Positions 10,862 to 49,842 of a DNA stretch of 57,371 bases are shown here, piece after piece; position 1 is the stretch's first letter, and each line of letters begins with the position of its first letter. The position numbers and the translations under genes were made by a program. The notes below the pieces were generated by a model. It was not told the DNA's origin. It saw only the letters and a program-made list of their open reading frames with translations, and did not search any database. The DNA comes from an uncultured virus (IMG/VR IMGVR_UViG_3300028797_000122) (Duplodnaviria; Heunggongvirae; Uroviricota; Caudoviricetes): IMG/VR virus record IMGVR_UViG_3300028797_000122. One strand, given 5' to 3'.

Positions 10862-12339
10862 TAGAGTTCCTCCCTGCAAATAACGGTTCTTTCGGTTTCT
10901 TCCAGGTCGCTGAGGTCCTTGTTGAAACGGATGTGGGGTTGCAGTTTCAATTTGTACTTGTTGAACAGGAGCCATGAGCCGAAGGTAAATTCGCCTAGGT
11001 AACCGATGTGACGGAATTTCTTTTCCGAAACCGGGTACTTCTTCATGAATTTTCTGGTGTTCGGGAACAGCCATTCGCAATACTTGTCTATCAGCTCCTT
11101 CTTGGCGATAAACATGTTGCAGCAAATGAGCATGTCGTGATGCAGCCTGTCAAGGCAGAACTGCTTGAAACCGGGGGTTCCTTCCTCGACGATATCCAGC
11201 CATGCGTTGAACATCTTCGTATAGTGGGATACTTCGAGGAAGCTGTATGCGCTCCTTCCTTTGGTGTGCTGGTGGAATGCGACGATGGCGTCGTATTTTT
11301 CGAGAATTTCGAGGGCATCGCTTTTCGGGAGGATGTTGTACGAGCTATTTACATCGTAACTTCCGTTGTCCTGCATGACGAAGCATCTGCGGTAATGTTC
11401 GAGGCCGACATACTTTGCCTTACTGTGCTTGTGCAGGTAATACAGGGCCGTCAGCTCGCAGAACCACGGGTTGAACTTGTCGATGTTCGGCTCGTCGTGT
11501 TCCTCGTCAACAAAGAAGAATTTGCGGCACGGGTCGTTCTCGATGATTCTGGCAACACGGTTCTTCGTGGACGATACTACATAGACTTCCATTTCTTCGT
11601 CAGGGTCACCTTCTTTCTTCAACGGCAGTGCGTGTGAAATAGGAGGGAAGAGTTTGTCGTAATACTTTTGCACCGCCTCGATGATTGCTTCCTTGTTCTG
11701 TGGTTCTGGAAGTTCTAATGCGGGTGAGAGGTGCCTGATGTCCAGTTCGTAGTCGGCACATACAATCGCCATGAAAATGTAGGCGGTATCTTCGTTCATC
11801 GGAACCGTGTCGAAATCGAACTCGTGCATGAATGTGAACATCGTCGAGTCGGATGGCGGATACAGAGTGTCCTGCGGGCACACGATTTCGTAATACTTGT
11901 TAGACAGGTTCGTATCTTTCCTCTTCTCGGCAAGAGAGGAGAAGGTCGCAACTGGCTTGTCATCGTTCCGTGACACCTTGACCAGGTTGAAAGCTGCGGT
12001 GCAGATGCTTCTCGGGAATTTCTCGTGCATCCTGTACAGTCCTTCGAGGCAGTTCGAATCGTAGTTGATTCCCGACTTTACCGAAATTATAGGAAGTGAT
12101 GGGTATTCGTCCATCCCGTATACGATTGCCGCCAACGGGTCGTCCGTGGGTGCCATCAGATGGGTGCTTACCCTGTTCATTTCCTTGATTGCCTCGGGGA
12201 CGGTAAACCCTTCCGTTTCGGTCTGGATGCACAGAAGTACGTTGATTTCTGGATTCTTGTTCAGGATTGAGCATACTGTCTTGCGGCATTGGCCCAATTC
12301 ATGTTCTTTAACTTGCAAAACGGCGATAGCTTTTGTCAT
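10861..12339 (-). CDS. GT-like N-domain plus DUF4422 glycosyltransferase
   Basis: NPWFCELTALY, VGLEHYRRCF, CNMFIAKK...YCEWLF, R.IGYLGE. Confidence 0.82.
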   Translation of the reverse strand: MTKAIAVLQVKEHELGQCRKTVCSILNKNPEINVLLCIQTETEGFTVPEAIKEMNRVSTHLMAPTDDPLAAIVYGMDEYPSLPIISVKSGINYDSNCLEGLYRMHEKFPRSICTAAFNLVKVSRNDDKPVATFSSLAEKRKDTNLSNKYYEIVCPQDTLYPPSDSTMFTFMHEFDFDTVPMNEDTAYIFMAIVCADYELDIRHLSPALELPEPQNKEAIIEAVQKYYDKLFPPISHALPLKKEGDPDEEMEVYVVSSTKNRVARIIENDPCRKFFFVDEEHDEPNIDKFNPWFCELTALYYLHKHSKAKYVGLEHYRRCFVMQDNGSYDVNSSYNILPKSDALEILEKYDAIVAFHQHTKGRSAYSFLEVSHYTKMFNAWLDIVEEGTPGFKQFCLDRLHHDMLICCNMFIAKKELIDKYCEWLFPNTRKFMKKYPVSEKKFRHIGYLGEFTFGSWLLFNKYKLKLQPHIRFNKDLSDLEETERTVICREEL

Positions 12340-17781: not shown

Positions 17782-18327
17782 ATGAAAAATAAAAACCTTA
17801 TCATCGTCGACATGCAAGTTGACTTCATCACTGGCGCCCTCGCCAATCCCAACCAAGAATGGGCACATACGGTAATCAAGAACATCTTCGAGCTACTCAA
17901 GAAATTTGATGGCAGGGTCTGGTTCACCCGTGACACTCATTCCATGAACTATCTTGAAACCCAGGAAGGCAAGAATCTTAAGGTTCCGCACTGCATCAAG
18001 GGCACTCCTGGATGGGAAATCATCTCTGAATTCCGCCCGTGGGTCAACGAACATAATGTCATCGATAAGAACACTTTTGGGTTCCCGTACTGGGGTGTTG
18101 TCCTCGGCGACCACGATACCTATTCTGGTATCGAAATTCCGCCGACCGAGGTCTACCTCGCTGGTACTGTAACTAGCATCTGCGTGGACAGCAATGCAAA
18201 CGGTGTCAAGACGGCGTTCCCCGAAGCTATCGTCGGCGTGTACAAGGACTGCTGCCTCGACGTCGACAAGAAACATCACGAAGCCGCATTGTTGGCAATG
18301 TCGGCAAAGCAAATCCAGATTCTCTAA
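17782..18327 (+). CDS. pncA: nicotinamidase (isochorismatase family)
   Basis: IVDMQVDF, RDTH, PHC..GT.GW, K, ICV catalytic/metal residues; operon context. Confidence 0.85.
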   Translation: MKNKNLIIVDMQVDFITGALANPNQEWAHTVIKNIFELLKKFDGRVWFTRDTHSMNYLETQEGKNLKVPHCIKGTPGWEIISEFRPWVNEHNVIDKNTFGFPYWGVVLGDHDTYSGIEIPPTEVYLAGTVTSICVDSNANGVKTAFPEAIVGVYKDCCLDVDKKHHEAALLAMSAKQIQIL

Positions 18328-18339
18328 AAAGGAAACATC

Positions 18340-18795
18340 ATGCTCTTAGATACATTAAACGACAAAATCAAGGAATTCATGAAAGCTCACGACACGGTAG
18401 GCCTGACTGCCCTCCGTACGCTCGTGTCCGACATCAAGAATGCGGCCATCGCTGCTCAGAAACCTGTTGACGACGCTATGTGTATCGCCGTTCTCGACAA
18501 GGCTATCAAGCAGAAGAACGAAACCATCGAAGGTTATGCCAAGGCTGGCAAGACCGAGCGAGCTGATGAAGAAAAGAAGACTCTCGAACTCTACAAGCAG
18601 TACATGCCTGCCCAGATGTCCGAAGACGAAGTTGTCGCTGAAATTGCAAAGGCTATCGAATCTACTGGCGCCTGTGAACAGAAGGATATGGGCAAGGTCA
18701 TGAAGATTCTTACGCCCATCATCAAGGGTCGTTTCGACGGCAAGGCTGCAAGCCAGTTGGTGGTCAAGGCGTTGCTTGCAAAGGCTGGTAAGTAA
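18340..18795 (+). CDS. GatB/YqeY domain protein
   Basis: K..MKA.D......LR, YMPAQMSE.E, DMGKVM, GRFDGK. Confidence 0.9.
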   Translation: MLLDTLNDKIKEFMKAHDTVGLTALRTLVSDIKNAAIAAQKPVDDAMCIAVLDKAIKQKNETIEGYAKAGKTERADEEKKTLELYKQYMPAQMSEDEVVAEIAKAIESTGACEQKDMGKVMKILTPIIKGRFDGKAASQLVVKALLAKAGK

Positions 18796-19850
18796 TGAAG
18801 AATTGGGTTTACATCGGCAGGTTCCAACCGTTCCACAACGGCCATCTTGACGTTCTGCACCAGATTATTGACAAGATGGACAAGAATGTGGACACTATTA
18901 CCCTTATCCTCGGGTCTTCCGATTCTGGAAGCCCTAGGAATCCTCTTGACTCGATTACCCGTTACGAAATGATTCAGTCTATCCTTGACAATGACTCGTA
19001 CATTGCCGAGAATAGGGTACGCTGTCGTATTCTCGTAGAGAGCATCCATGATTCTCCGTACAACTGGACCATGTTCGGAAAATGGCTTCAGTCGCAGCTT
19101 CGCCTTCATATGACTCTATGTGACAACATCCTTTGTGGCATGGAGTACATCAAGGAATATGCAAACCTTGTCGGAGTGCCCTATTGGCAGGCAACGGAAA
19201 ACGTACATATCCATGCGACGCAAATCCGTCAGGCCTTTGTCGAGAACGACACCGAGTACCTTAAAGCGAAACTTCCCGCAGGAGTTTTCGCCGACGAGGA
19301 ACTCTATGCACGAATCAAGGAACAAATCGTCAATGCCCGCAACTTGCAGCTCAAATACATCAAGGATTTGAACCCGAAGTACGCATCTGTCTACAAGACG
19401 GTTGACAACGTCGTCCTTTGCGGTGGTCATATCCTGTTTGTCGTCCGCAAGGATAACGGAAAGTACGCCCTCCCTGGCGGATTCCAGGACCCGACGGACC
19501 TTTCCGCACAGAAAGCTGCAGAGCGTGAACTGATGGAGGAAACCGGGTTGGATTCTTCCGATTGGACCCCGTCCGCATCGAAGAATTTCGACGCCCCGTT
19601 CCGTGACCCCCGTTCGAGCGAAAAGGTAAACGCAGAGACTACGGCGTTCCTTTACCGTATCAACCCGAAGTACCTGCTTAGCCCAAACGGCGTGATGGTT
19701 CCTCAGCTTCCGAAGGTGGTAGGCCAGGACGATGCAGCCGACGCTGTATGGCTCAGTCTGAATGAAGTTTGTGGATATCCTGAAAACAGGTTCCATGCAG
19801 ACCACAAGAAAATTATCTTAAACATGCTCGGGCTTGAACCGAGATTCTAA
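18795..19850 (+). CDS. bifunctional NMN/NaMN adenylyltransferase - ADP-ribose pyrophosphatase (NadM-Nudix, NatV-like)
   Basis: IGRFQPFHNGH, NPL, HATQIR; Nudix box PGGF...AAERELMEETG, RDPR, F.ADH. Confidence 0.92.
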   Translation: MKNWVYIGRFQPFHNGHLDVLHQIIDKMDKNVDTITLILGSSDSGSPRNPLDSITRYEMIQSILDNDSYIAENRVRCRILVESIHDSPYNWTMFGKWLQSQLRLHMTLCDNILCGMEYIKEYANLVGVPYWQATENVHIHATQIRQAFVENDTEYLKAKLPAGVFADEELYARIKEQIVNARNLQLKYIKDLNPKYASVYKTVDNVVLCGGHILFVVRKDNGKYALPGGFQDPTDLSAQKAAERELMEETGLDSSDWTPSASKNFDAPFRDPRSSEKVNAETTAFLYRINPKYLLSPNGVMVPQLPKVVGQDDAADAVWLSLNEVCGYPENRFHADHKKIILNMLGLEPRF

Positions 19851-19870
19851 CTCAAAAGGATGGTAATCAA

Positions 19871-21133
19871 ATGCTAGACCATTGGTGTATAGAAAGTCTG
19901 CTTGAGACAGACCTCTACAAGTTCAATATGGATAACCTGTACTTTACCCAGTACAGCGACTACACAGGAAAATGGGCATACAAGTGCCGCAACCGCAAGG
20001 ATGGAAGCGTCGTTGTCTTCACTAAGGAAGACGTTGCCGAAATCAACCGCCAGATTGACCACCTTTGCACCCTCATGTTTACCCAGAGAGAACTTAGCAT
20101 GCTCTTCGGTGAAGCTACCTGGCTTACCCCGTCGTTCAGGCATTTCCTGAGCATGTTCCATCTTGACCGTGACGAAATCCGTGTCGTGTACGACGAAAGC
20201 ATCGAGTCCAAGATGGCAATCGAAGCTGGTGGCGACCTCGACCCGTTGATGCGAAACACTTACTTCGAAATCTACGTTCTCGCCATTGTGAACGAAGTTT
20301 ACTTCTACCATCACAACAAGAACTACGCCGAACTCGAAGAGGAAGCAATCCGTCGTATCGACAAGAAGATTGCACAGCTTGCAAAGGGCGAATACGTTAT
20401 CGGCCCGTTCTCCGAATTTGGCCTCCGTCGTCGTTTCTCCCGCAAGGTTCAGGATTACCTCGTCCGTGCTTTCGCCAATGCCCAGAAGGCTGGTATTCTC
20501 GGTAAGTCCATCTTCCTCGGTACTTCCAATGTGTACCTCGCATTGAAGTACGGTGTGAAGCTTATCGGAACAATCGCCCATGAAGCTGTCGAAGCTATCG
20601 GCCAGGGCGACCCGATGTTCAACCCTGCCTACTCCAACCGTCTCATGATGGACGCATGGCAGAGACAGTACAAGGGCTGCAACGGTATCTACCTCACCGA
20701 CTGTGTCCGTACCGATACATTCCTCATGGACCTCACCCGTAACGATGTCCGTGTCTGGGATGGTTTCAGACACGATTCGGGCGACCCGTATGCTTGGGGC
20801 GAAAAGATGATTGATGCAATCCAGCGTCTCGGTGGCGACCCGATGCAGAAGACTTTGCTCTTCTCCGACTCCCTCGACTTCGAACGTGCAAGCAAGCTCT
20901 ACGCCCATTTCAGCCCTCGTGCCAAGGTAGGCTTCGGTATCGGAACCTTCCTGTCCAACGACTGCGGAGTGGAACCGCTCAACCAGGTCATGAAGCTCAT
21001 CGAATGCAATGGCCGTCCTGTCGCAAAGATTTCCGACACCGAAGGAAAGCTTATGTGCCGTGATGCCGGATATGTCGATTGGCTGAAGCGTACGCTTGAC
21101 TGGCGTCTTACCCACGAAGTTAAAAAATTCTAA
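19871..21133 (+). CDS. pncB: nicotinate phosphoribosyltransferase
   Basis: TDLYK, EFGLRRR, GTSN, GTIAHE, RHDSGDP, FSDSLD, FGIGT, AKISD. Confidence 0.93.
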   Translation: MLDHWCIESLLETDLYKFNMDNLYFTQYSDYTGKWAYKCRNRKDGSVVVFTKEDVAEINRQIDHLCTLMFTQRELSMLFGEATWLTPSFRHFLSMFHLDRDEIRVVYDESIESKMAIEAGGDLDPLMRNTYFEIYVLAIVNEVYFYHHNKNYAELEEEAIRRIDKKIAQLAKGEYVIGPFSEFGLRRRFSRKVQDYLVRAFANAQKAGILGKSIFLGTSNVYLALKYGVKLIGTIAHEAVEAIGQGDPMFNPAYSNRLMMDAWQRQYKGCNGIYLTDCVRTDTFLMDLTRNDVRVWDGFRHDSGDPYAWGEKMIDAIQRLGGDPMQKTLLFSDSLDFERASKLYAHFSPRAKVGFGIGTFLSNDCGVEPLNQVMKLIECNGRPVAKISDTEGKLMCRDAGYVDWLKRTLDWRLTHEVKKF

Positions 21134-21142
21134 GATAATCCC

Positions 21143-21171
21143 TTGACAGGAGTCTTTTAATTAGTTATATT
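21143..21171 (+). promoter_or_regulatory. sigma70-type early promoter
   Basis: TTGACA-N17-TATATT. Confidence 0.8.
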
Positions 21172-21199
21172 AAGTGACGGAAACATCCGTCACTTTTTT
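21172..21199 (+). terminator. terminator overlapping the predicted TSS
   Basis: AAGTGACGGA-AACA-TCCGTCACTT plus TTTT. Confidence 0.7.
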
Positions 21200-21213
21200 A
21201 TTAGGAGTAAATC

Positions 21214-21825
21214 ATGATTCAACACGTTGTTGGCGACATGCTCGATTTCAGTAAGGATACACCCGATATCATCATCCACCAGACCAACTGCGAAGGCAAG
21301 ATGGGTGGCGGTGTAGCCAAGGTCATCAAGGAAAAGTTCCCTAAGGTCTATGTGGAATATCTCGAATTTATCGCACACAATCTGTTCGAACAGCGGGATA
21401 CCATAGCTCTGCCGATAAAGTGCAGCAACCTGCTTGGAAGATTTTTTTACAGCGATGTTACTGTCGGTGACAAGAGCGTACTTTTTGTCGACCTGTTTGC
21501 TCAGGATAGTTGCTCGGAAGGAACAAGCTCGTTTAGCGAAAAGCGCTTTACCAGCTACGATGCGATGCACGAGGGACTGATTGATATCAGAAACATGCTT
21601 GTGTTTTCGTATCATGTTCAGAAGTTGCATGGCACCCGTCCTGTCAAAATCTGGATGCCAGAAAAGATTGGTTGTGTCAAGGGCGGCGGTAAGTATGAAA
21701 TCGTCAAGGCAATCGTCGAAAGCGTGTTCGACAATCCTAGCTTCAGCAATATGATTGACCTTACCCTGTTCACCTTGCCTGAAAAGAATTCTAACTTGCC
21801 TAAGGGACCTTTCGATGCGATGTAA
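21214..21825 (+). CDS. macrodomain protein (ADP-ribose binding/hydrolase)
   Basis: GD, HQTNC.GKMGGGVA..IK.KFP, LFAQ, P.KIGC..GGG. Confidence 0.88.
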   Translation: MIQHVVGDMLDFSKDTPDIIIHQTNCEGKMGGGVAKVIKEKFPKVYVEYLEFIAHNLFEQRDTIALPIKCSNLLGRFFYSDVTVGDKSVLFVDLFAQDSCSEGTSSFSEKRFTSYDAMHEGLIDIRNMLVFSYHVQKLHGTRPVKIWMPEKIGCVKGGGKYEIVKAIVESVFDNPSFSNMIDLTLFTLPEKNSNLPKGPFDAM

Positions 21826-22099
21826 GAATTGTCCCTACGAAGATTACGACTACCAGGAGAATTATCCGTGTTGTCAGCTCTTCGGCGATAACGAGGACTT
21901 TATCTATGAAAACTCCAAGGGCGAACTCGGATGCAAATACAACATGCGTAGTCTGCAGAAGTTCGTCCGGGAGCGAGAAGAGGACGAAAAGGTTATCGTG
22001 CAACAGATGGGAGATTTCGTGAAATGGTGCGAAGAGCACCCGAACCCTCCCTATGACGACCCAGAACCCGAGGTGAAAAATGATACGAGAAAAGAGTGA
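21815..22099 (+). CDS. hypothetical Cys-containing protein
   Basis: ORF, CxxCP. Confidence 0.65.
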   Translation: MRCKNCPYEDYDYQENYPCCQLFGDNEDFIYENSKGELGCKYNMRSLQKFVREREEDEKVIVQQMGDFVKWCEEHPNPPYDDPEPEVKNDTRKE

Positions 22100-22256
22100 C
22101 TTCAAGTGCCGCCACGACCTGCTTGAAATCTGGGAGTGGATGGAAGGGACGTTCATCAGGGAGTGCCTCAACAAGGGTATCGACCCAGACGATTTTGGCG
22201 AAATCGACGTGTCTTTCTCCGTCGCAGTAAAGCAAACAAGAAAACCTGAACCGTAA
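22080..22256 (+). CDS. hypothetical protein (58 aa, not in ORF track)
   Basis: GAGG RBS, fills the gap. Confidence 0.55.
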   Translation: MIREKSDFKCRHDLLEIWEWMEGTFIRECLNKGIDPDDFGEIDVSFSVAVKQTRKPEP

Positions 22257-22264
22257 CTAAAAAT

Positions 22265-22585
22265 ATGGCATTCCATCATCATTTCGGAACACATTACAGC
22301 ACGTTGAACCCAGTTCACCCGCTGAACCAATTTAATCCGGCAAGCCCGTACTATCACTTGTACCACAGCAAGAATGATGTGCTCGTCCAGCCACACCAGG
22401 CAGTATCGTTTGAAGCACAGGAATTTCTCGTCATGGGCGGTTGCTTCCTGACGGCAGTGTTAATCGTTGCCGCCATCGGAACCATTATCAGGCACAGAAG
22501 CAACAAGAAATTTGATGCTAAACTGAAACAGATTGAGAAACGCTGGAAGAACTCCCCGTTGAAACCCAAAATTGAAAGGGAATGA
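22265..22585 (+). CDS. hypothetical single-TM protein
   Basis: NP repeats (NPVHPLNQFNPASP) plus TM segment. Confidence 0.65.
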   Translation: MAFHHHFGTHYSTLNPVHPLNQFNPASPYYHLYHSKNDVLVQPHQAVSFEAQEFLVMGGCFLTAVLIVAAIGTIIRHRSNKKFDAKLKQIEKRWKNSPLKPKIERE

Positions 22586-22878
22586 GTATGCACCCGTACA
22601 AGATTAGAGTGTTCCTTGACCATAGCGGTGTCGTAACGGATTTCGTCATGGCGGACACCGAGTTCGAGACAATCGAGGCTGCCCGCCTGTACATCAAGAA
22701 GCAGTTCGACGATACCATCACAAATCTCGAAAATACGAACACGTCCTATACCGTGTCCTGTATTGCCAACAAGGACAGCATTGATATCCCACGGGGTTAT
22801 CAACAGGATTACGAATCCGTCTTTTACAAAAAGCTATTTACGGATAATTTCACGATGATTATGGAAATCATCCGATAG
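22582..22878 (+). CDS. hypothetical protein
   Basis: coupled ORF. Confidence 0.65.
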   Translation: MSMHPYKIRVFLDHSGVVTDFVMADTEFETIEAARLYIKKQFDDTITNLENTNTSYTVSCIANKDSIDIPRGYQQDYESVFYKKLFTDNFTMIMEIIR

Positions 22879-22890
22879 GAGACATGGACT

Positions 22891-23277
22891 ATGAATTACA
22901 ACTACAAAAAGAACATTGACAAGCAAATCATAAAGCTTCGCTTTGTTCATTCATACAAGGAGTATTATTCCTTGCAGTTCAAAACTACTGGATGGTTTGC
23001 CAAGTGGATTACCGTAGAAGAATACAATCCTACGATAAGCGCTGCCGATAAACCATGCGGAATAACATCGTATGGCAACTGGGAAAATCGTTGGTGGAAA
23101 ATCGAATCTAACGAGTACGGGAAGAAACTTCTGGACGAACTTAGGGCCAAGCTGAAAACAGTCGGCGACATTTACAGTACCTATATCGAGCCTGAAGAAA
23201 AACGCATGGCAGCCGACTATAAAAGATACGAGGAGTACTGGGATAAAATAAATTCAGTTAGCGCTATTATCAAATAG
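22891..23277 (+). CDS. hypothetical protein
   Basis: ORF with RBS. Confidence 0.7.
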   Translation: MNYNYKKNIDKQIIKLRFVHSYKEYYSLQFKTTGWFAKWITVEEYNPTISAADKPCGITSYGNWENRWWKIESNEYGKKLLDELRAKLKTVGDIYSTYIEPEEKRMAADYKRYEEYWDKINSVSAIIK

Positions 23278-23280
23278 TGG

Positions 23281-23309
23281 TTGACAACCTTTTCGTATTT
23301 ATCTATATT
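23281..23309 (+). promoter_or_regulatory. sigma70-type early promoter for nadE
   Basis: TTGACA-N17-TATATT. Confidence 0.8.
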
Positions 23310-23340
23310 TCCATTGAAAATATCAAAAACGAGGTATGAT

Positions 23341-24165
23341 ATGAATATGGCCGATACGGCGTATAAGAAACTCTTTGATGTTGCTAAAGAGTGCGACTTG
23401 ATGAAAGCTCACATGTTTAAATGGTTTGCCGAACACGGGTTTACCAAGGCTGTCGTCGGGGTTTCTGGCGGGGCTGACTCGACCGTTACTTGCAAGGTTG
23501 CTTGCGACGTGCTTGGCCCAAAGAATGTGTACGCAGTGAAGATGCCGAACGGAGTCCAGGCTGACATCGCCGACTCCAACAGTGTCGTTGAATTTTGCGA
23601 CTGCAATGAATCCACGATTAACATTTCCGATGCGTTCAAGGGCTTGAACGAACAGTTCATCAAGAGCGGTTTCGAACTCAACAGTGTCTACTCGACGAAC
23701 ACTCCCGCACGCCTCCGTATGGCTACTCTCTATGGTGTTTCCGCCATTGTAGGTGGCGTTGTCCTCAATACCTGCAACCTTTCCGAAGACTGTGCATGGG
23801 GCAACTTCTCCACGCTCTATGGTGACAACGCTGGTTCCTATGCATGTCTCCAGGGCTTTACCAAGACCGAAGTGCGTATGCTTGGCGAATATCTCGGCAT
23901 CCCGAGCAAACTCGTGTGGAAGACTCCTAGCGACGGCATGTGCGGCAAGTCCGACGAAGCTAGAATTGCCGAACTGTCTGGGGTGAGCAAATTTACTTAT
24001 GCCGAGTTCGACAAGTTCATCCGTGGATTGGAAACCTCTTTCAGCCGTAGCGACATGCAGCGTCTCATCTGGGGTTACAAGAAGGGCACGTTCAAGAATG
24101 AACTCGTGAACATCCCGCATTATACTCCCAAGCTTCCCAACGTATTTATCGACAACAAGTGGTAA
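23341..24165 (+). CDS. nadE: NH3-dependent NAD+ synthetase
   Basis: GVSGGADS PP-loop, N..ARLRM, NT.N.SE, TLYGD, KTEV, KTPSDG; no glutaminase domain. Confidence 0.92.
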   Translation: MNMADTAYKKLFDVAKECDLMKAHMFKWFAEHGFTKAVVGVSGGADSTVTCKVACDVLGPKNVYAVKMPNGVQADIADSNSVVEFCDCNESTINISDAFKGLNEQFIKSGFELNSVYSTNTPARLRMATLYGVSAIVGGVVLNTCNLSEDCAWGNFSTLYGDNAGSYACLQGFTKTEVRMLGEYLGIPSKLVWKTPSDGMCGKSDEARIAELSGVSKFTYAEFDKFIRGLETSFSRSDMQRLIWGYKKGTFKNELVNIPHYTPKLPNVFIDNKW

Positions 24166-24168
24166 ATC

Positions 24169-24621
24169 ATGAGCAGTCTTTATGTAGGAGAGATATCTCT
24201 CGACACGTTCAAGGAGGTGTGCGAACGCCACCATCTTGAAACCGAGACGCCATCAGAAGACGGAATGGGGTTGTTCTGTGCTGTCCTCAACGTGACGGAA
24301 GACGTGTTCATGCTTATCACGTACTCGGACGAGGCCGATGGCCGCAAGTACGTGAGCCTGTTCGCATCTAACCGCAAGACGGGTTCCACGCAGAAGATAA
24401 GTCACGTCCCTGCGTACCACAACAACCTCATCAGCGCAATCAGGACGGCAAACCGTTTTTACGACGACACCAAGGCAAGGGGGCTTGCAGTAGTCCCCCG
24501 CAAAATAAAGAAGGATGACAATGAAGGTAATGGTAACGGGCCACAGGCCAGAGAGAATAACGGGCAGGGAACAGGAAATCAAGGAATGGCTGACGAAGAA
24601 GGTCGAGGAACTGAAACCTAG
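24169..24621 (+). CDS. hypothetical protein
   Basis: ORF; 3' end overlaps the next gene. Confidence 0.6.
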   Translation: MSSLYVGEISLDTFKEVCERHHLETETPSEDGMGLFCAVLNVTEDVFMLITYSDEADGRKYVSLFASNRKTGSTQKISHVPAYHNNLISAIRTANRFYDDTKARGLAVVPRKIKKDDNEGNGNGPQARENNGQGTGNQGMADEEGRGTET

Positions 24622-25015
24622 CGACTGCATCTCCGGGATGGCCCAGGGTGCCGACCAGATTTATGCGGAGGTCGCTTATGAAAAGGGTATTCCTCTTATT
24701 TGTGCTTGGCCTTATGAGCGCAAGCTTCATCCTGTTGAGCAGAAGTATCACGACTATGCGGAAGTGAACCATGTTGCCTTCCACAAGTTCCAGCCAAGCT
24801 GCTATGCCACCCGTGACAAGTGGATGGTGGACAACTGCGACATCGTCCTTGCCGTATGGGACGGAAACCCTGTCGGCGGCACTTACGACACGATTGAGTA
24901 CGCCAAGCAGAAGCACAAGCACATCTACCTCTTCCCTTGGACTGCGGAATCAATCACTGAGATTATCCCGATGAACCCTCCGCAGAAAACACCCGACGGT
25001 TGGACCCTCTACTAG
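24521..25015 (+). CDS. SLOG-superfamily (YspA/DUF1273-like) protein
   Basis: VTGHRP, ISGMAQGAD, RDKWMVDNCD.VLAVWDG...GGT..TI.YA. Confidence 0.85.
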   Translation: MKVMVTGHRPERITGREQEIKEWLTKKVEELKPSDCISGMAQGADQIYAEVAYEKGIPLICAWPYERKLHPVEQKYHDYAEVNHVAFHKFQPSCYATRDKWMVDNCDIVLAVWDGNPVGGTYDTIEYAKQKHKHIYLFPWTAESITEIIPMNPPQKTPDGWTLY

Positions 25016-25024
25016 GAGCGAAAC

Positions 25025-25234
25025 ATGTCCAAGTTCAGCAAGAAGGAAAGGGCCAACATCGCCAGAGTCCGCAAGGAAATGAAGCAGACTCGGGAATACA
25101 AGGATTTGCTCGTGTTGAAGGAAAAGTTCAACCGAAAGGAAATAACCGAAACCGAGTATATCGAAGAAATGGGGAAACTCCTGAAAGGAATCCAGGAAGC
25201 CCCGCAACCAATAAATCTTAAAACATCAACTTAA
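25025..25234 (+). CDS. hypothetical protein
   Basis: AGGAG RBS. Confidence 0.65.
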   Translation: MSKFSKKERANIARVRKEMKQTREYKDLLVLKEKFNRKEITETEYIEEMGKLLKGIQEAPQPINLKTST

Positions 25235-25244
25235 TGGAGTAACC

Positions 25245-25715
25245 ATGAACAACCTCAGTCAACTCGAACAGGCAATCGCCATCCCCACCGCTATCGTAGC
25301 CGACCTCAACAAGGCGAAGGAATATATCGACGCCGACAAGAAGGATGAAGCAAAGCAGCTTATCGACAAGGTGGCAAAATTCATGCAGTCGCAGGCCGAC
25401 ATGGCAAAGCAGCAGTATGACGCAATCATGAAGAAGCACGAAGAGGCGATGGAAGTCATGAAGAAGGACAAGCACGTTGACATCAATGACCCGTTCATCA
25501 TGATGCTCAATGAAAGCACCTACACTTTCAAGCGCAAGGAATGGGATGCTGGCATCCGCTACATCCGTGACCAGGACAAGAAGACTGTCTGCCGTGCCCG
25601 CAACGTCGGTGGCCTCCTCACCGATATTGAAAAGACTGACCTCCAAGACCCGTTCGCTAGCCTCCAGATGCAGGCTCCCGCACAGCAGGCAGCAAGCCCA
25701 ATCATCAAGGGTTAG
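25245..25715 (+). CDS. hypothetical helical protein
   Basis: GGAG RBS. Confidence 0.75.
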   Translation: MNNLSQLEQAIAIPTAIVADLNKAKEYIDADKKDEAKQLIDKVAKFMQSQADMAKQQYDAIMKKHEEAMEVMKKDKHVDINDPFIMMLNESTYTFKRKEWDAGIRYIRDQDKKTVCRARNVGGLLTDIEKTDLQDPFASLQMQAPAQQAASPIIKG

Positions 25716-25718
25716 TCC

Positions 25719-25976
25719 ATGACCAAGAACGAGTTCGTAAAGGCTTGCGAAAAGGTCGGATGCACAGTTTCCGAAGGGAGGGTGATGCTCGGGGATATCC
25801 AACTCGGCTACTACTGGAACGACAGTTTCGATATAGTGGCCGACCCCAAGATTTTCAACCTTAGGGCAACCTGGAAGTACACCCAAGTCGACCTCAACAC
25901 TTTCAAGGTTCTCCTTAAAGACGTGGTCGACGGAATCAAGAAATCAAAGGAAGTCAAAGATGCTTCGAGAAATTAA
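25719..25976 (+). CDS. hypothetical protein
   Basis: ORF in operon. Confidence 0.65.
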   Translation: MTKNEFVKACEKVGCTVSEGRVMLGDIQLGYYWNDSFDIVADPKIFNLRATWKYTQVDLNTFKVLLKDVVDGIKKSKEVKDASRN

Positions 25977-26241
25977 CAAAGACTATGTCAACCTCAATCT
26001 AGTCGAGGTTGTGCGCCCGATTGAAACTGACAAGATAGTGACAGGCTACCAAATCATTTTGATATCGGGACGCAATTACACGGTAAGCAAGAAAGTAGGA
26101 GATTCTATCCGTCTCGCAATGAATGCCAGCAGTACCACGGTAGTAGGAAACGCTGCCAAGAAGAAATCAGATAAAAGCCTTCAGGAAGTCCTCCAAATGG
26201 CAAAAGCTGTTAACAACCCGTTGAAAGGTAAGTTGAAATGA
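25960..26241 (+). CDS. hypothetical protein
   Basis: ORF in operon. Confidence 0.6.
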   Translation: MLREINKDYVNLNLVEVVRPIETDKIVTGYQIILISGRNYTVSKKVGDSIRLAMNASSTTVVGNAAKKKSDKSLQEVLQMAKAVNNPLKGKLK

Positions 26242-26864
26242 GTGATTGGCTTAACAACATCAAGGCGTTCGGTGACACTAAGCTGGAACTCCGTGCAGTA
26301 ACCTTGTTCGAGGAGTTCAAGAAGGTTGTCATCAAGGCTGGGGTTGAAAATCCAGACGAGTATGCGGAAAACATGTTCGACCGCATTATGCACATCTTCA
26401 AGACCACCGAAAGGACATACTGCGTCGGTCCGCATGACGGCGTAATCGACTCGTTCTTCGGGCCGTACCGATTCCTTAGCAACTTCGAACCGTGTACCGT
26501 GGAATACGAGGGGATGACCTACAACTGTTCCGAAGCTGCATACCAGGCAGCTAAGACGACGGATGTTTCCCTCCGTATCGCCTTCGCTACGATGAACGGT
26601 TCCAAGGCGAAGTTTGCTGGCCAGAAACTCCCGATTCGAGCAGACTGGAACGATGTCAAGGTCGATGTTATGTACCAAATCGTGAAGGACAAGTTCTCCC
26701 GCAATCCAGAGTTGAAAGAGAAGCTCCTCAGTACGGGAACTCTCCAGCTCATAGAGGGCAACTACTGGGGCGACAAGTTCTGGGGTATCTGCAACGGGGA
26801 AGGCGAAAACCATCTCGGCAAGATTCTCATGAGGGTCCGCAGGGAACTGTCCAAACAAATTTAG
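26238..26864 (+). CDS. NADAR (YbiA-like) family protein with N-terminal extension
   Basis: FLSNF, SEAAYQA.K, R.DW..VK..VM, KF..NP.L...LL.TG...LIEGN.WGD.FWG...G.GENHLGKILM. Confidence 0.93.
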   Translation: MSDWLNNIKAFGDTKLELRAVTLFEEFKKVVIKAGVENPDEYAENMFDRIMHIFKTTERTYCVGPHDGVIDSFFGPYRFLSNFEPCTVEYEGMTYNCSEAAYQAAKTTDVSLRIAFATMNGSKAKFAGQKLPIRADWNDVKVDVMYQIVKDKFSRNPELKEKLLSTGTLQLIEGNYWGDKFWGICNGEGENHLGKILMRVRRELSKQI

Positions 26865-32723: not shown

Positions 32724-33545
32724 ATGAACAGGAAGGCACTTTTTGAAGAACAGCTCGTGAAAATGGGTCTCCCCCCGAAGACGAAGGACATGGTCATGAA
32801 ACTCAATGACGCATGTTTCAAGGAGCGGGATGACAAGAACCCGTGTATCGACGAATACGGGTTCTATAAGGACCCGATGTCTTGTGACATCGAGACGTTG
32901 AAACGGGCGTGGGACGAACCCATCAGGGAGGACAAGAACCCGTTTGAAATCAAGGAAGTCGACGGGCCTACCCACGACAAGCCAATCGGCGGTTACATCC
33001 CGATTAAATCACAGCAGGAAAAGGACGACGAGGAATACGCCGACGACCCGCTGTACCAGTTCTCCAAGCGTATCCGCCACGAGTTCGACCGAAAGAGCCG
33101 ATACAGACTTCCGTTCAGCGGCAAGTATCAAATGAATTACATCGTCGGCCCTGAGGTTGACGACCCCGAGAACCACATGTTCGACGGATTCCCTAAGACG
33201 CTTGATTTCATGAAGGAACACAGGGGATGGCTCTGCGGCCAGATTTCATCACACAGCATGCCTGAATACATGGGCGGCATGGTCAAGATGCTGATAGGCA
33301 GTTGGTATATCACCCTGCTCGTCGTGAAGGACCCAGATTCTTCTAGGGTGGACTACTGTGTGTACGGTGGGCCCATGCTCTACATGAAGCACGGGACGAT
33401 GTATGACGGAGACTGCCTTGCGACCAGCAATACAGACGACGTGGAAGAAATCAAGATGATTTGCCACAAGATTCTGCACGAGGCGTACGACAATGCGGTC
33501 AAGGCACAGTTCCAGTCCATCCGCAAGACCAGTCTCGACGTTTAA
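32724..33545 (+). CDS. hypothetical late protein with shared leader
   Basis: ORF; MNRKALFEE..MGL...CFKE. Confidence 0.75.
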   Translation: MNRKALFEEQLVKMGLPPKTKDMVMKLNDACFKERDDKNPCIDEYGFYKDPMSCDIETLKRAWDEPIREDKNPFEIKEVDGPTHDKPIGGYIPIKSQQEKDDEEYADDPLYQFSKRIRHEFDRKSRYRLPFSGKYQMNYIVGPEVDDPENHMFDGFPKTLDFMKEHRGWLCGQISSHSMPEYMGGMVKMLIGSWYITLLVVKDPDSSRVDYCVYGGPMLYMKHGTMYDGDCLATSNTDDVEEIKMICHKILHEAYDNAVKAQFQSIRKTSLDV

Positions 33546-36990: not shown

Positions 36991-37064
36991 TGTCCCGTAG
37001 TTTAACTGGAAAAATGTGGCCCTCCGAAGGCCAAGACGTGCGTGTTCGAATCACGTCGGGACAA
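36991..37064 (+). tRNA. tRNA-Arg(CCG)
   Basis: acceptor TGTCCCG/CGGGACA, anticodon arm TGGCC-CTCCGAA-GGCCA, T-loop TTCGAAT; CCA not encoded. Confidence 0.88.
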
Positions 37065-37085
37065 CTTTAATACTTAGGTAGAATC

Positions 37086-41395: not shown

Positions 41396-41426
41396 AAAAA
41401 GCTCTCCGATTTGGAGAGCCTTTCCT
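41396..41426. terminator. bidirectional terminator
   Basis: AAAAA-GCTCTCC-GATTT-GGAGAGC-CTTT between convergent genes. Confidence 0.65.
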
Positions 41427-42224
41427 TTATTCATCGTAGTCGTCGAAGAACAGTCCGTACTCCCTCATCCATGCACGGGCCCCGATTTGGTCGGCCCGTT
41501 TTTTCATTTCCTTCACGTTGAAGTTGTACACGTCCCACCAAGGGATTTCAACAAGGAGGAACGGCGATTTTGCACCCATAGCTTCTACGCAGAGCTTGTA
41601 GAAGGCGTTGTCGGTCCCGTTGGTAGCGGACGATATGATTATCTTGTTGAATACCCCGCAGGTAATTGTCGGGAAGAATGCCTTGACTATGTGTTCCTGT
41701 TGTTCCTTGGTTGCGAACGCAAAGTCGTCTAGGAACATGTAGTTGACACGGGGTGTTATCAAGTAGGTTTTACTGGAATCTTCTACGTTATCGAGTGTAC
41801 CGTATGACTTTGCTACGATAACGGAGTCTGTTGTAGTGTTTCTAATCTCGCCCTTATTGAACTTGATTGACAACCCGTCATTGTACCATTCCGCAGGAAG
41901 GTTTTTTAGAGAGAAGGCGATTTTACCCACTATTTCGCATGCCCTTGCCAGCTTGGTTGAAACGACCGTTATCGTAACACCTTCCTCGAACAGCAGCTTG
42001 TGCATGATGAACAGCGTCGCTTCAAGCGTGGAGCCAGACTGTCTCGGCTGTTTCAGAATCAGGTTTCTCTTGTTGCCGCAGATTGGCGGAAGCTGCATAA
42101 GGGTCAGAACCTTCCGTTGGTAACCCCTCGTGGACATGCGTTCTGTCCCGTTGCAGTTCTGTACATAGGTGAATTTCGCAAGGTCGAAAATGTTGTCCTT
42201 GCAGTTAAGGAATGATTTACTCAT
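41427..42224 (-). CDS. terminase large subunit ATPase-domain-only homologue with degenerate Walker motifs
   Basis: YQ, PRQSGST, FLDDFAF, IIISSATNG.N.FY, IPWWDV, REY; no nuclease domain. Confidence 0.8.
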   Translation of the reverse strand: MSKSFLNCKDNIFDLAKFTYVQNCNGTERMSTRGYQRKVLTLMQLPPICGNKRNLILKQPRQSGSTLEATLFIMHKLLFEEGVTITVVSTKLARACEIVGKIAFSLKNLPAEWYNDGLSIKFNKGEIRNTTTDSVIVAKSYGTLDNVEDSSKTYLITPRVNYMFLDDFAFATKEQQEHIVKAFFPTITCGVFNKIIISSATNGTDNAFYKLCVEAMGAKSPFLLVEIPWWDVYNFNVKEMKKRADQIGARAWMREYGLFFDDYDE

Positions 42225-42303
42225 ATTGTACCCCGTATGTTAACCAGCAGACGGAATTGCCGACTGGCCGAAGCATAATTAAAGTATATTTTCACGATTT
42301 CCC

Positions 42304-42349: not shown

Positions 42350-42769
42350 ATGAGAATGCCTAGATTTTATTACATAATGAAGCACAAGTTGCATGCGTTC
42401 GTCGCCCGCAACTTCACTGGATGTGCATACTGCAACGAAAAGAAATTGTGGAAGATGTTCGGCGAAAAGTGCGTCCCGCTGGACAACTTCAATACTCTGA
42501 TGGATAGCGTCCCGGTCGGAGACGGCAAGACAAAGTACGCCTGCTACTTCTACCCCAAGCAGCGCTGCATCGATGTCAACCGAGTGGACGAGAACGGGAA
42601 GTACATCACTGTCGAATCAATCTTCGTACACAACTGCCCCGAATGCGGAAGGCCATTGCCGTATATGCTCGGTAACAAGAAAAAGAAGGAAAAGGTGGTC
42701 ATCGCTTCGACGCCCAAGGGCCCTAACGTGTTCTACAACATGTGGAAAAAGGCGGTTGGAACAAGATGA
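42350..42769 (+). CDS. Zn-ribbon protein with terminase-like C-terminal peptide
   Basis: CAYC...CPECGRPL; tail VVIASTPKGPNVFYNMW. Confidence 0.7.
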   Translation: MRMPRFYYIMKHKLHAFVARNFTGCAYCNEKKLWKMFGEKCVPLDNFNTLMDSVPVGDGKTKYACYFYPKQRCIDVNRVDENGKYITVESIFVHNCPECGRPLPYMLGNKKKKEKVVIASTPKGPNVFYNMWKKAVGTR

Positions 42770-46057: not shown

Positions 46058-46696
46058 TCAGTGTGCTCTTATGAAGTTTAAAATCTGGGCTTGATGGGTT
46101 TTACAAAAATACTCGGGATTTGGGTTAAAACTATTTTGTATCTTACCTCGTTCGGTGTCATCAAAGATTATTAAATGGGTGTCATCGGTATATTTTAAAA
46201 ACTCCTTATATTTGGTTATTAAAACAATTTTATATTTAGTATTCAAGTTTAAAATTTTCTGCTCCTTTTCAAAAGTATAATCAAATAAGCTCGGTTCATT
46301 TCGTTCATACTCCCCAAGAATAACAAAACTAGGGGGCTCGTTCATTCTTTGTAATCTGCTTGTATATTTGTCAACTACATATTCCCATATTTTATCATAC
46401 CATACATCAAATCCTCTTACCATAGGAGTTGTTATGTCTTTATCGAAATAATAATGTGTATAATGAACGTCTACTTTATTGTCAATTACCAACTTAAATG
46501 TATTTAATGGATTCGGCGACTCGTTAAATTCGGACTTTTCTATTTCAAAGTTATTGAAATTTATATTATCCCAATCCTTTATCATATTGTACATACTATC
46601 AGCTAATATAGCACACCAAATAAAAGGGTTAGTAAACTGTAATCCATTAAACTTATAGAGAAATCCGCCAAGGCAATTATTTGACACCACATTCAT
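46058..46696 (-). CDS. DUF1919-like polysaccharide biosynthesis protein
   Basis: VVSNNCLGG.LY...GL.F..PF, HY.HY, R..RM. Confidence 0.75.
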   Translation of the reverse strand: MNVVSNNCLGGFLYKFNGLQFTNPFIWCAILADSMYNMIKDWDNINFNNFEIEKSEFNESPNPLNTFKLVIDNKVDVHYTHYYFDKDITTPMVRGFDVWYDKIWEYVVDKYTSRLQRMNEPPSFVILGEYERNEPSLFDYTFEKEQKILNLNTKYKIVLITKYKEFLKYTDDTHLIIFDDTERGKIQNSFNPNPEYFCKTHQAQILNFIRAH

Positions 46697-47138
46697 TTTG
46701 ACCTATCAATGCCTCCCTAAATTTACTTGAACTATAATCATGTTCCCTTTTGTTGTAATAAATTTTTATTTCTGGAATATCATGTCCCGTATGCGGGGTT
46801 CCTTTATATTCTTCCCCAACAAACCTAATAGTTGGCTTGATTATCTTTAACATATTTTCCAAATCACGCTCAGTATCAAATGGAATAACCATATCGACAT
46901 ACTTATTGGAAGTAACTTGAATCCAGCGTTCAAATGTTGTTTGACATGGTTTGTTCTTGTTTTTACGTGAAATTGTTGGGTCGGTTAAAAGACCCACTAT
47001 TAAAAAATCACAATTATGTTTTGCCTCCATGAGCATAAGGTCATGGCCACAGTGGGGTCCCAACTCAAATGTGCTACACGTAAAGCCGATTACTTTACCT
47101 TCCTGCTTTAATTCAATAATTTTATCTAAGCAATCCAT
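46677..47138 (-). CDS. glycerol-3-phosphate cytidylyltransferase-like (TagD/RfaE family)
   Basis: GFT.S.F...HCGH, LIVGL..D, K..P....ER, VD.VIP, R.H..SSS. Confidence 0.85.
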   Translation of the reverse strand: MDCLDKIIELKQEGKVIGFTCSTFELGPHCGHDLMLMEAKHNCDFLIVGLLTDPTISRKNKNKPCQTTFERWIQVTSNKYVDMVIPFDTERDLENMLKIIKPTIRFVGEEYKGTPHTGHDIPEIKIYYNKREHDYSSSKFREALIGQNECGVK

Positions 47139-48153
47139 ATAATTCGATAATCCTCTCAACGGTTTTTCCTTTTAATTGTTTATCAGCGTATTTATAAATA
47201 CGAATCCAATGCGATAGTTCAGAAAGTAAACATAGAGTTTTCATTTGCGAATAGTTATTGAGTAAGGTATCGTATTCTAGTCTTCTATCATAACGGTTAA
47301 ACGAATGTAATAACTTCCCAATATCTAAGATGTATGATGAAAACAAGTTATCATCAAAATTTGGGTCAATAAGATATACGTTGCCACATACGAAAAGTAT
47401 GTTATCTACGGTTAAGTCACCATGAGAAAAACTCCGCTTCGATTCGAACTCCTTAGCGTGTGTCTTGAACAAGCTTAATATACCATCTTTATCCTCTGAT
47501 GCTATGTCTACTATATTCTCTAGGTGTACTTTGCATCGCTCGATATAGCTATCAAATGAGGCGTTTGATATACTGGGTATAGTTTTCTCTCTGTTTATAA
47601 CCTTATCAATTACGTCAAATACGTTGAAGCCATCATCATCCTCGTTGAGATATTCCATGCATATAGTTTTCCCAATAACACTATAAATTTTAGGTACCTT
47701 GAAGAATGTTTTTGCGACTGAATACCATTTAACCGTTTGTGCGGTATTTTCGGCTGTTTTATATACTTTATTGTCACGTAGTTCAGTCACCGCTCCACTC
47801 AAACCGCCTTTAAATTGTTCGAAAGTCAAGTTTAAAAATTCTTCGGGTTTATATGCTTTATCATCTATATAATATGATGCTAATTTTTTATCGAAACTTA
47901 ATTCCGTGTATTTGCAGTTATGCTTTTTAAGCCATTCCTCTATTTGGCTGTAGTACTTTAGCTTGGCCTCTTCTCGTGTTGTGCAAGACAGACTTCCTCT
48001 GGCTGTGATGTAATAAACATCCCAGCCTAAATCATATAACTCATTTAGTTTTTGTATCAATGCCTCGTTCGCCCGAGCATTTTCAAAATCACGATTTATG
48101 GTAAATGAAACACAATCGTCTATATCTACGACAATGCTATGCGGATATGACAT
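47122..48153 (-). CDS. HAD phosphatase (capsule type) fused to an APH/choline-kinase-like phosphotransferase
   Basis: VDIDD, TARG, YIDDKA; HGDLTVDNIL, LIDP. Confidence 0.8.
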   Translation of the reverse strand: MSYPHSIVVDIDDCVSFTINRDFENARANEALIQKLNELYDLGWDVYYITARGSLSCTTREEAKLKYYSQIEEWLKKHNCKYTELSFDKKLASYYIDDKAYKPEEFLNLTFEQFKGGLSGAVTELRDNKVYKTAENTAQTVKWYSVAKTFFKVPKIYSVIGKTICMEYLNEDDDGFNVFDVIDKVINREKTIPSISNASFDSYIERCKVHLENIVDIASEDKDGILSLFKTHAKEFESKRSFSHGDLTVDNILFVCGNVYLIDPNFDDNLFSSYILDIGKLLHSFNRYDRRLEYDTLLNNYSQMKTLCLLSELSHWIRIYKYADKQLKGKTVERIIELYGLLR

Positions 48154-48154
48154 A

Positions 48155-48790
48155 TCAACCTCCTATTATTATCGGTGCGTTATACGCATTCAACTTGTAA
48201 TGGTCTATAAATGTATCGAGCCCAGTAAGTTCGATAATATGGCCAATACAACGGCGTGGAGCTTTATAAATATTGTACACCTCTGTGTATTCGTTTAAAA
48301 TAGAAAATAACCATGAGCAATAGAGGTTAAATATCTCTGCTTTACCAACGAACATATTGTGCTGGCAACTTTGTTTAGCATTAAGTGCTTTCATATATGA
48401 TTTTACACAACTTGGGCATATATATCGTAATGCGCAATACACATGAAAGACTTCATTTTTAAGACCCCCAAATCCAAACCCCCGGTCCAAATGCCATAGG
48501 CGTGTATTGGGTTCTAGTCCAGTGCGGTGGACTATGATGTCATATTTATTCAATTTTTCGTTCATCTCGGATTCGTTTATATCGAACGCTTTCCTGTATT
48601 GGTCTAGCCCAAATACTTCTGAATTGGTAACATTTTTGTATAGATAATATAGTCCAGTCAGCTCACAGTACCATGGGTTTAATGAGTCAATGTTTTCCTC
48701 AGTATGGGGCTTATCAACATAGTAATGCTCAGTTTTATACTTTCGGCTGATGAATTTTTTATTGCTTGGTCCTGAGGTAAAAATTATCAT
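48155..48790 (-). CDS. DUF4422 family glycosyltransferase
   Basis: NIDSLNPWYCELTGLY, GLDQYR, NMFVGK...YCSWLF. Confidence 0.8.
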   Translation of the reverse strand: MIIFTSGPSNKKFISRKYKTEHYYVDKPHTEENIDSLNPWYCELTGLYYLYKNVTNSEVFGLDQYRKAFDINESEMNEKLNKYDIIVHRTGLEPNTRLWHLDRGFGFGGLKNEVFHVYCALRYICPSCVKSYMKALNAKQSCQHNMFVGKAEIFNLYCSWLFSILNEYTEVYNIYKAPRRCIGHIIELTGLDTFIDHYKLNAYNAPIIIGG

Positions 48791-48798
48791 ATTTCCTC

Positions 48799-49842
48799 CT
48801 AAACTCTAACGGCACCATTATTGGAATACGGCGCCCAATATATTTTGTAATTTTTCATTGTTAGCCAAGCGCCAAAGAAAAACTCGCTAATATAGCCGTT
48901 TATTCTTCTGTTATTTTCAGTAAGAATTACCTTTTTATTGTATTCGGCGAATGTATTGAAAAGCCAATTAAAGTACTCATCAATAACCTGTCTCTTACCA
49001 ATCATCAAATTTCCTTGACAATGCCATTGCCCATATAAAAACTCATTGAAAAAATTAGCAACATCATTTCCGTACATTTCACGCACAGTGCCGATGAACG
49101 CAAAGAAGTCATCTTTTTTGCCGTTTCGTATCGGCCAGGTGAAAATATGCGAACCATTTCCATTTGGATAATGTTCTTTGGCACAAATCACGTCGAAGTC
49201 AGTAAGTATAGAGGAGATTTCTGCTTCGCCCAATAAATTATGCTTGGTTGAATCAAGGAAAAAACGACGATATTGTTCTAGTCCGACGATATTTGCATCG
49301 CAGTGTTTCAATAAGTAGTATAATCCGCTCAGCTCACAATACCACGGATTTAATGTATCTATATTGTCTCCGTCATGGTGTTCATCTATCAAATACTTCT
49401 CACGGATAGTGTCTAATGGACGAAATTCATTCTTGCTACTACCGACTACATATATTTTAATGTTTGAGTGCTTGTCTGAATCATGATTTGCAACAGTGGT
49501 GGTATCCATTTGTTTATTCTTAGAATGAATCTTTAATTTAAACTCCTGGAATTGTCGTTCATGCCAACTAAGTTCATCGTCACTTAACTGTATATAACTA
49601 TTATGAAAGCTTGGGTCAGCGTAAGTTGGTGAGGCATGAGGTGCATCCTTCATGCGGTTAATGATGTTATCTAGCTGAGACCCAGTGCCAAAATGGAACT
49701 TCGGCATCTCTCTTTGTCTTGCCTCAAATGCAGCAGCATCCTGTTCAACCTTGGTCGGTAGTTTAGGGTTTGTCACGGCGGGTACGCCAACATGAGGTGC
49801 ATTACGCATCCTGTTCAGGATGTCTTCAAAAGACGTTCCCAT
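48799..49842 (-). CDS. DUF4422 family glycosyltransferase with repeat-containing N-terminal extension
   Basis: GDNID.LNPWYCELSGLY, VGLEQYRRFF, R..GYISE. Confidence 0.82.
   Translation of the reverse strand: MGTSFEDILNRMRNAPHVGVPAVTNPKLPTKVEQDAAAFEARQREMPKFHFGTGSQLDNIINRMKDAPHASPTYADPSFHNSYIQLSDDELSWHERQFQEFKLKIHSKNKQMDTTTVANHDSDKHSNIKIYVVGSSKNEFRPLDTIREKYLIDEHHDGDNIDTLNPWYCELSGLYYLLKHCDANIVGLEQYRRFFLDSTKHNLLGEAEISSILTDFDVICAKEHYPNGNGSHIFTWPIRNGKKDDFFAFIGTVREMYGNDVANFFNEFLYGQWHCQGNLMIGKRQVIDEYFNWLFNTFAEYNKKVILTENNRRINGYISEFFFGAWLTMKNYKIYWAPYSNNGAVRV

Follow-up and report, generated by a model that had tools for sequence, protein, structure and literature searches.

A maintained, lysine-less paralogue of the large terminase in a T4-like jumbo phage, a candidate decoy for terminase sensors

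The 57,371-nucleotide stretch analysed here (the window), from an uncultured virus of the Caudoviricetes (IMG/VR record IMGVR_UViG_3300028797_000122), encodes on its minus strand (41427..42224) a protein of 265 amino acids, P0001, that profile, PDB and Foldseek matches identify as an ATPase-only paralogue of the T4-type large terminase. This pseudo-terminase is real and conserved, and T4-like jumbo phages have several lineages of the kind. P0001 is read here as a maintained pseudo-ATPase that works by binding, most likely as a counter-defence decoy for terminase sensors, a reading given a probability of about 0.4. Nearly all tailed phages have a terminase, and it is one of the main targets of bacterial immune sensors with broad range; a dead copy, if it blocks such sensors, would show how a phage can evade detection through a protein that it cannot change, and a decoy would separate binding from activation in the sensor Avs2. 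If P0001 instead restrains the large terminase (TerL), it would be a natural regulator of the packaging motor. In either case, P0001-type genes readily receive the annotation 'terminase large subunit' and can mislead phylogenies built on terminase.

The open reading frame is uninterrupted and stops at TAA. Alignment to terminase profiles, proposed as a check in the initial annotation of this DNA, gives matches to PHROG terminase families (E 3e-12) and to T4 gp17 in the PDB (E 6e-8). When a predicted model of P0001 (mean pLDDT 67, pTM 0.70) was searched with Foldseek, the closest match was the ATPase domain of T4 gp17 (E 9e-14, TM 0.67). A Pfam search with the exact P0001 protein gave no match; Terminase_6N is detected in its homologues, and an ESM Atlas search returned Terminase_6N clusters only. 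P0001 thus has the gp17-type ASCE ATPase domain, and it resembles that of T4 gp17 (PDB 2O0H, 2O0J) in fold, adenine motif, Walker A arginine and the point at which the lid ends. Unlike gp17, P0001 and its family lack the Walker A lysine and usually also the catalytic glutamate, have an altered motif III and no C-terminal RNase H-fold nuclease domain, and are second copies beside an intact TerL.

Searches recovered 37 homologues of P0001 at 49-95% identity, and the residue counts below use the 35 sequences that cover Walker A, with P0001 included and three fragments left out. The adenine-binding motif R33-G-Y-Q36 (42117..42128, minus strand; T4 R140 and Q143) is retained, with R in 34/35 and Q in 35/35. 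Walker A (residues 61-66; 42027..42044, minus strand) reads RQSGST against RQLGKT in T4 gp17, which places Ser65 at T4 K166. The initial annotation had described this replacement of lysine by serine, and it holds throughout the family, where the position is Ser in 34/35, Ala in 1/35 and Lys in 0/35; across 15 coding sequences the Ser65 codon is TCC in 12 and TCA in 3. Walker B (YMFLDDF, with D166 and D167; 41721..41741, minus strand) reads FLDDFAF against YIDECAF in T4 gp17, with Asp167 at the catalytic glutamate (T4 E256). The change from Glu to Asp, claimed together with the loss of lysine, is present in P0001 but is not fixed in the family, in which the residue is D in 27, E in 5 and N in 3 of 35, as against Glu in 70/70 full-length terminases (a set chosen by its Walker A motif, so that a lysine count in it is circular). 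Conservation in homologues, another suggested check, therefore divides the two substitutions: the lysine is lost in 35/35, and the change from Glu to Asp, not being conserved, is not a defining feature. In motif III, the coupling motif (41616..41633, minus strand), SSATNG stands for TTTPNG of T4, with Ala at the T287 position, which is Ala in 27 and Thr in 8 of the 35 family members and Thr in 70/70 full-length terminases. The translation agrees with the earlier description of this motif and of an end just after REY, the C-terminus lying eight residues past it.

P0001 is very probably a non-hydrolysing pseudoenzyme, to judge from these motifs. Its presumed inactivity rests mainly on the loss of the lysine, because the change from Glu to Asp in lambda terminase (E179D) is, in the accessible part of the source, lethal and yet leaves weak ATPase activity (PMC6379665). 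That residual activity would suit a non-canonical but active ATPase in which Arg61 replaces the lysine, as would the invariance of Arg61 and the catalytic Glu kept in 5/35 homologues. Such an enzyme is nevertheless very unlikely in a family that has lost the lysine in 35/35, lets the Glu position drift among D, E and N, and has changed the motif III Thr to Ala in 27/35.

The source is a large gut phage, with a virus record of 422,150 bases that has terminal repeats and is rated 100% complete; among 88 proteins scanned are those of T4-like head, portal, sheath, tail tube and late sigma genes. An intact TerL of 554 aa, with RQVGKS, LYLDEF and a nuclease half, is encoded at 277683-279347, 67 kb from the P0001 gene, and its ATPase domain is 24% identical to P0001. 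A nuclease profile built from 67 sequences found no nuclease-only ORF in the whole genome (best other match E 0.19), and no separate nuclease domain was found at loci L002-L026. No fused ATPase-nuclease form of P0001 was found among longer proteins, in a weak search, or among 50%-cluster representatives. The alternative raised in the initial annotation, that P0001 is the true packaging ATPase with its nuclease encoded separately, therefore fails, since the genome has an intact TerL and no free nuclease half, and a split terminase is ruled out. Read-through of the stop is likewise rejected, as the gene ends with TAA in some loci and TGA in others at the same place.

Homologues share their length and stop position with P0001, and the P0001-type gene has the same position and an orientation opposite to its neighbours at 25 loci, a count that includes several duplicates and two loci identical to the window; L016, unlike the other loci, has a same-strand ORF behind the gene. 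Three related records long enough for both genes carry a P0001-type gene together with an intact TerL that has about 90% identity to the TerL of the window phage, and two short related records hold the P0001-type gene only. Both complete genomes of the clade carry the gene, as do the two long fragments that include TerL. Comparison of 15 distinct coding sequences in 105 pairs gives a dN/dS of 0.31, with 0.19 in residues 1-66, 0.40-0.46 in the middle and 0.14 in residues 195-265. A dN/dS above that of TerL (0.34 versus 0.07, in one genome pair) would suit a pseudogene in decay or one half of a split terminase gene; either is exceedingly improbable given the purifying selection, the intact frame, the common stop position and the complete TerL. 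A pseudogene is accordingly rejected, and the earlier proposal of a maintained pseudo-enzyme is supported.

The central segment of the protein (residues 116-195; 41640..41879, minus strand) has a mean pairwise identity of 0.52-0.59, as against 0.87 at both ends, and is swapped between alleles by recombination, giving mosaic alleles. Retained across the family are R33, Q36, R61, G64 and T66, together with the Walker B aspartate in 33/35. An Arg-Gly pair conserved in terminases at T4 245-246 has been lost, in a region where the alignment is uncertain. We take the arginine of this pair to be the trans-acting finger, with the same reservation about the alignment at the site.

Related jumbo phages have at least two further lineages of ATPase-only copies without the lysine, and these often lie immediately before TerL. 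Among 149 distant matches, selected by likeness to P0001 and including 28 without a readable Walker A (many apparently from inteins), the nuclease domain is missing from 8/9 lysine-less and 31/112 lysine-bearing proteins (Fisher p 5e-4); one of the eight, P0168, is a spurious pattern match in the tail, so that the true count is 7 and the p value somewhat weaker. In one lineage the lysine-less domain is fused to a ribbon-helix-helix (RHH) domain (Pfam RHH_1 in 3/4 scanned). This family comprises 16 loci (L176-L191, around 3001-4000) and 9 distinct proteins, none with the lysine, and 9/9 are encoded just ahead of TerL in the same orientation, the contig of L186 holding only the start of TerL; at four of the loci a degenerate 234-aa copy or a 95-aa fragment lies between the fusion and TerL. 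The RHH-fused copy is a candidate autoregulator. In a second lineage the lysine is replaced by tyrosine (L263 1369-2595; L264 1408-2862; L239 3408-4301; two with unrelated C-terminal extensions), and the copy precedes TerL at 4 loci but is distant from it in 2 genomes; none was found in a 91%-complete relative. The huge phages LR756500 and LR756504 also carry lysine-less copies. Terminase matches are single in CBB, Lak-A1, LR756502 and Hallingskeid, in searches that miss weak copies, and another search gave a 235-aa terminase-like match in CBB. The same kind of search in T4 gave only a weak match to vs.8. A 558-aa full-length terminase, P0069, has RQSGVN as its sole, apparent, Walker A-like match.

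In the tree the lysine-less lineages fall apart from each other. An approximately unbiased (AU) test with a fast search rejects grouping the P0001 family with the RHH-fused family (p 0.003); descent of the P0001 family by duplication from the TerL of its own phage group is not rejected (p 0.30). These lineages bear on a second function for P0001, that of restraining or regulating the terminase of the same phage, in which an inert subunit would bind TerL, the small terminase or the portal and delay cutting and packaging to a late stage, or cap the motor ring. The 9/9 RHH-fused proteins and the copies at the four K-to-Y loci, all encoded immediately ahead of TerL and in its orientation, speak for a brake, as do the strong conservation of the lid and P-loop ends (dN/dS 0.19 and 0.14) and the loss of the Arg-Gly pair. 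The P0001 gene itself lies 67 kb from TerL, lacks a late promoter and encodes a protein of 24% identity in the ATPase domain, and the AU test separates its family from the RHH-fused one; for P0001, a brake is rather unlikely.

The expression signals of the gene suggest pre-late timing. Its promoter-like element AATATACTTT (42281..42290, minus strand) resembles a class that also precedes the gene for the late sigma factor, and a variant of it is present at 15/15 loci checked. Genes of the structural region have the late motif TATAAACT upstream, with 54/65 genome matches preceding the start of a gene; it is also present in the operon that runs to TerL. The P0001 gene has no late motif (score -0.3, against 11.6-21.9 at the training sites). 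Its upstream region scores 12.4 for the other class, a value reached by 4/2000 shuffles and below the training range of 20.6-25.5; the scoring matrix was trained without the P0001 gene, and the first pattern was written with that gene in view. Because the late motif is absent and a weaker variant of the late-sigma-gene class is present, expression before the late genes is inferred. Contigs from two RNA libraries span the 5' part of related alleles, and contigs cannot show transcription. Elsewhere, many genes in G000 1-28000 have TTGACA-type promoters upstream, and the upstream regions of non-structural genes are enriched in a GGTTATCACCCT-like motif.

Between promoter and start codon lies a conserved 5' leader with a short hairpin (42244..42267, minus strand) and weak covariation: the outer 6-bp helix is 98.5% paired with one compensatory pair, a level reached by 34-40/500 shuffles, and the inner helix as drawn is unsupported by covariation. 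The initial annotation had described a lone minus-strand gene with a terminator. The neighbours are indeed on the plus strand and the hairpin (41401..41419; z -4.5 on the minus strand) is real, but it is bidirectional, being listed for the plus strand too, and is seen in 5/20 loci read past the stop.

The case for a decoy combines these observations with what has been reported on Avs2. According to the accessible text of the source, the ATPase domain alone suffices to activate Avs2 and Upx (PMC13601566). The available part of a structural study, on an Avs2-trypsin structure with terminase in T4 numbering, describes K166 as holding ATP1 and E256 as bonded to ATP2, and reports that both bridging ATPs promote Avs2 activation (bioRxiv 10.64898/2026.08.25.746987). 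The residues altered in P0001 are, on that partial description, those that hold the bridging ATPs. In the proposed mechanism, a protein with the terminase fold but neither the Walker A lysine nor a nuclease, kept by purifying selection beside an intact TerL, would be made before the late genes and therefore before the real terminase. It might then enter the pocket in which Avs2-type sensors take up terminase; lacking K166 and, in most members, E256, it could not form the two-ATP bridge, and the sensor would therefore be occupied without firing. The position of the gene in an accessory region, 67 kb away from TerL, also speaks for a decoy.

Of the contacts given in the accessible part of the structural description, those with the Avs2 TPR are kept in the P0001 family (R162 35/35, Q163 35/35, an acidic residue at E198 35/35), and those with the Avs2 C-terminal domain (E227, D242, R245, N247, S275 and S276) fall in its most variable part, where the residues of P0001 do not mimic the phage's own TerL. 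This map fits a protein that binds Avs2 without activating it; it would also fit sensor avoidance, or a conserved lid face that binds TerL. Co-folding of P0001 with residues 585-1239 of a Fibrobacterales Avs2 lent weak support to binding, scoring 0.53, against 0.00 for the best control, with at least 35% of contacts common to the runs and a partner pLDDT of at least 75. The mark for a pass is reached by 116/157 solved complexes and 2/215 mismatched pairs, and passing scores of 0.60 or under comprise only 18/157 solved complexes and both passing mismatches; since like complexes are already solved, the pass may reflect likeness only.

The choice of a Fibrobacterales sensor follows the likely host. 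A CRISPR spacer in the Fibrobacterales genome G049 matches window positions 33036-33065 at 29/33 bases and a second spacer matches at 27/33, the remaining 24 spacers having 9-13 mismatches; six other short DNA matches to genomes of the host order all lie outside CRISPR arrays. The thyA-folA pair of the phage (window 12456-13855) has 90% and 57% amino acid identity to a Fibrobacterales pair, the 90% being that of thymidylate synthase to one in a Fibrobacterales genome. Avs2 was matched in 13/151 Fibrobacterales genomes, 7 of them strongly, with long matches, and 1 above the cut-off, and its presence in the order supports the decoy reading. Avs3a was found in 0/151, in a search whose control likewise matched nowhere, and Avs1b gave short N-terminal matches only. 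At L168 517-6092, a Fibrobacterales Avs2 of 1239 aa, with a shorter N-terminus than most homologues, is followed by an AAA ATPase gene, behind restriction-modification-like genes.

Several points count against a decoy. Free-standing domains of terminase type have until now proved to be activators of sensors: in the accessible text of PMC13601566, T4 vs.8 and EcAvs2 together are toxic, truncation to the ATPase domain leaves activation of Avs2 intact, and Upx still responds to most Walker B mutants. Overall identity between P0001 and its own TerL is only 24%, the promoter score of 12.4 lies below the training range of 20.6-25.5, and Avs2 occurs in only about 5% of sampled genomes of the host order, while a P0001-type gene is present in all four TerL-bearing records of the clade. 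The copies of related phages, in tandem with TerL and carrying a DNA-binding domain, point to terminase regulation. Beyond P0001 itself, it can be tentatively suggested that T4-like jumbo phages have repeatedly made dead decoys, dropping the lysine so that the pocket of Avs2-kin NLRs is filled without the ATP bridge, and tuning the recombining segment to the sensors of their hosts, as a viral pseudo-PAMP antagonist would.

A further reading, a nucleotide binder repurposed for something other than packaging or Avs (as a sensor, as a sponge for adenine-nucleotide signals or as a host-takeover factor), is unlikely. Retention of R33, Q36, R61, G64 and T66 and of the Walker B aspartate (33/35) would agree with it, the RHH fusions show a dead domain serving as a regulatory module, and the variable, recombining segment fits sensor escape as well as decoy tuning; the changes in P0001 may also help to avoid triggering Avs2. 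Against such a binder, no ligand or partner points to one, and the neighbouring genes are unannotated.

P0001 lies outside the working TerL family and is not an orthologue of vs.8. Like P0001, T4 vs.8 is a stand-alone terminase-ATPase homologue outside the packaging genes, of unknown function; unlike P0001, it keeps RQSGKS and DE, and membership of P0001 in the vs.8 family is ruled out (hhalign probability 3.3%). The available text of PMC13601566 models vs.8 in the Avs2 pocket and reports that it activates EcAvs2. The phage proteins Ksap1 and Ksap2, described in the accessible parts of PMC11564622 and PMC13601566, are non-terminase activators predicted to use the same pocket, and such proteins may, as the authors of the latter suggest, be anti-defence factors; they have at most weak structural likeness to terminase, whereas P0001 is a clear terminase paralogue. 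Terminase genes split by introns or inteins, like the P0001 gene, have an ORF with the ATPase part only, but they keep the lysine and the nuclease part adjoins (L191, for example), neither of which is true of P0001. Stand-alone terminase ATPase paralogues are thus already known (vs.8). No description of the lysine-less, ATPase-only form was found in the literature searched, which covered main texts mostly outside subscription journals, and the accessible parts of PMC5737356, PMC11564622, PMC13581612, PMC7824862 and PMC13728456 do not describe such copies; the vs.8 alignment and phylogeny in the supplements of PMC13601566, outside this search, may bear on novelty.

The conserved upstream neighbour of the P0001 gene is a divergent, Cys-rich gene of 139 aa (42350..42769, plus strand). 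Its C-terminal tail (42689..42766, plus strand) corresponds to terminase motif III and the next helix (E 1e-6 against a terminase ATPase profile; best E 0.35 in a reversed-ORF control), with an intact STP-G, and is found in 6/17 loci and missing from the other allele type. The 95-aa gene at L176 (3953-4240) has the same motif III-helix region plus the lid. The P0001 gene lies in an accessory region that also carries genes for NAD synthesis, and the NAD-related genes at window 17782-26864 encode an isochorismatase-family protein, a Nudix-cytidylyltransferase fusion, nicotinate phosphoribosyltransferase, NAD synthase and NADAR. Together these presumably form an NAD reconstitution pathway. A block on the minus strand at window 46058-49842, with a GC content of 0.34-0.38 against 0.47, encodes DUF1919, a cytidylyltransferase-like protein, a 343-aa protein and two DUF4422 proteins, and is probably a recent acquisition. 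Two further DUF4422 genes lie at window 10184-12339, and a tRNA-Arg (CCG) gene at 36991-37065.
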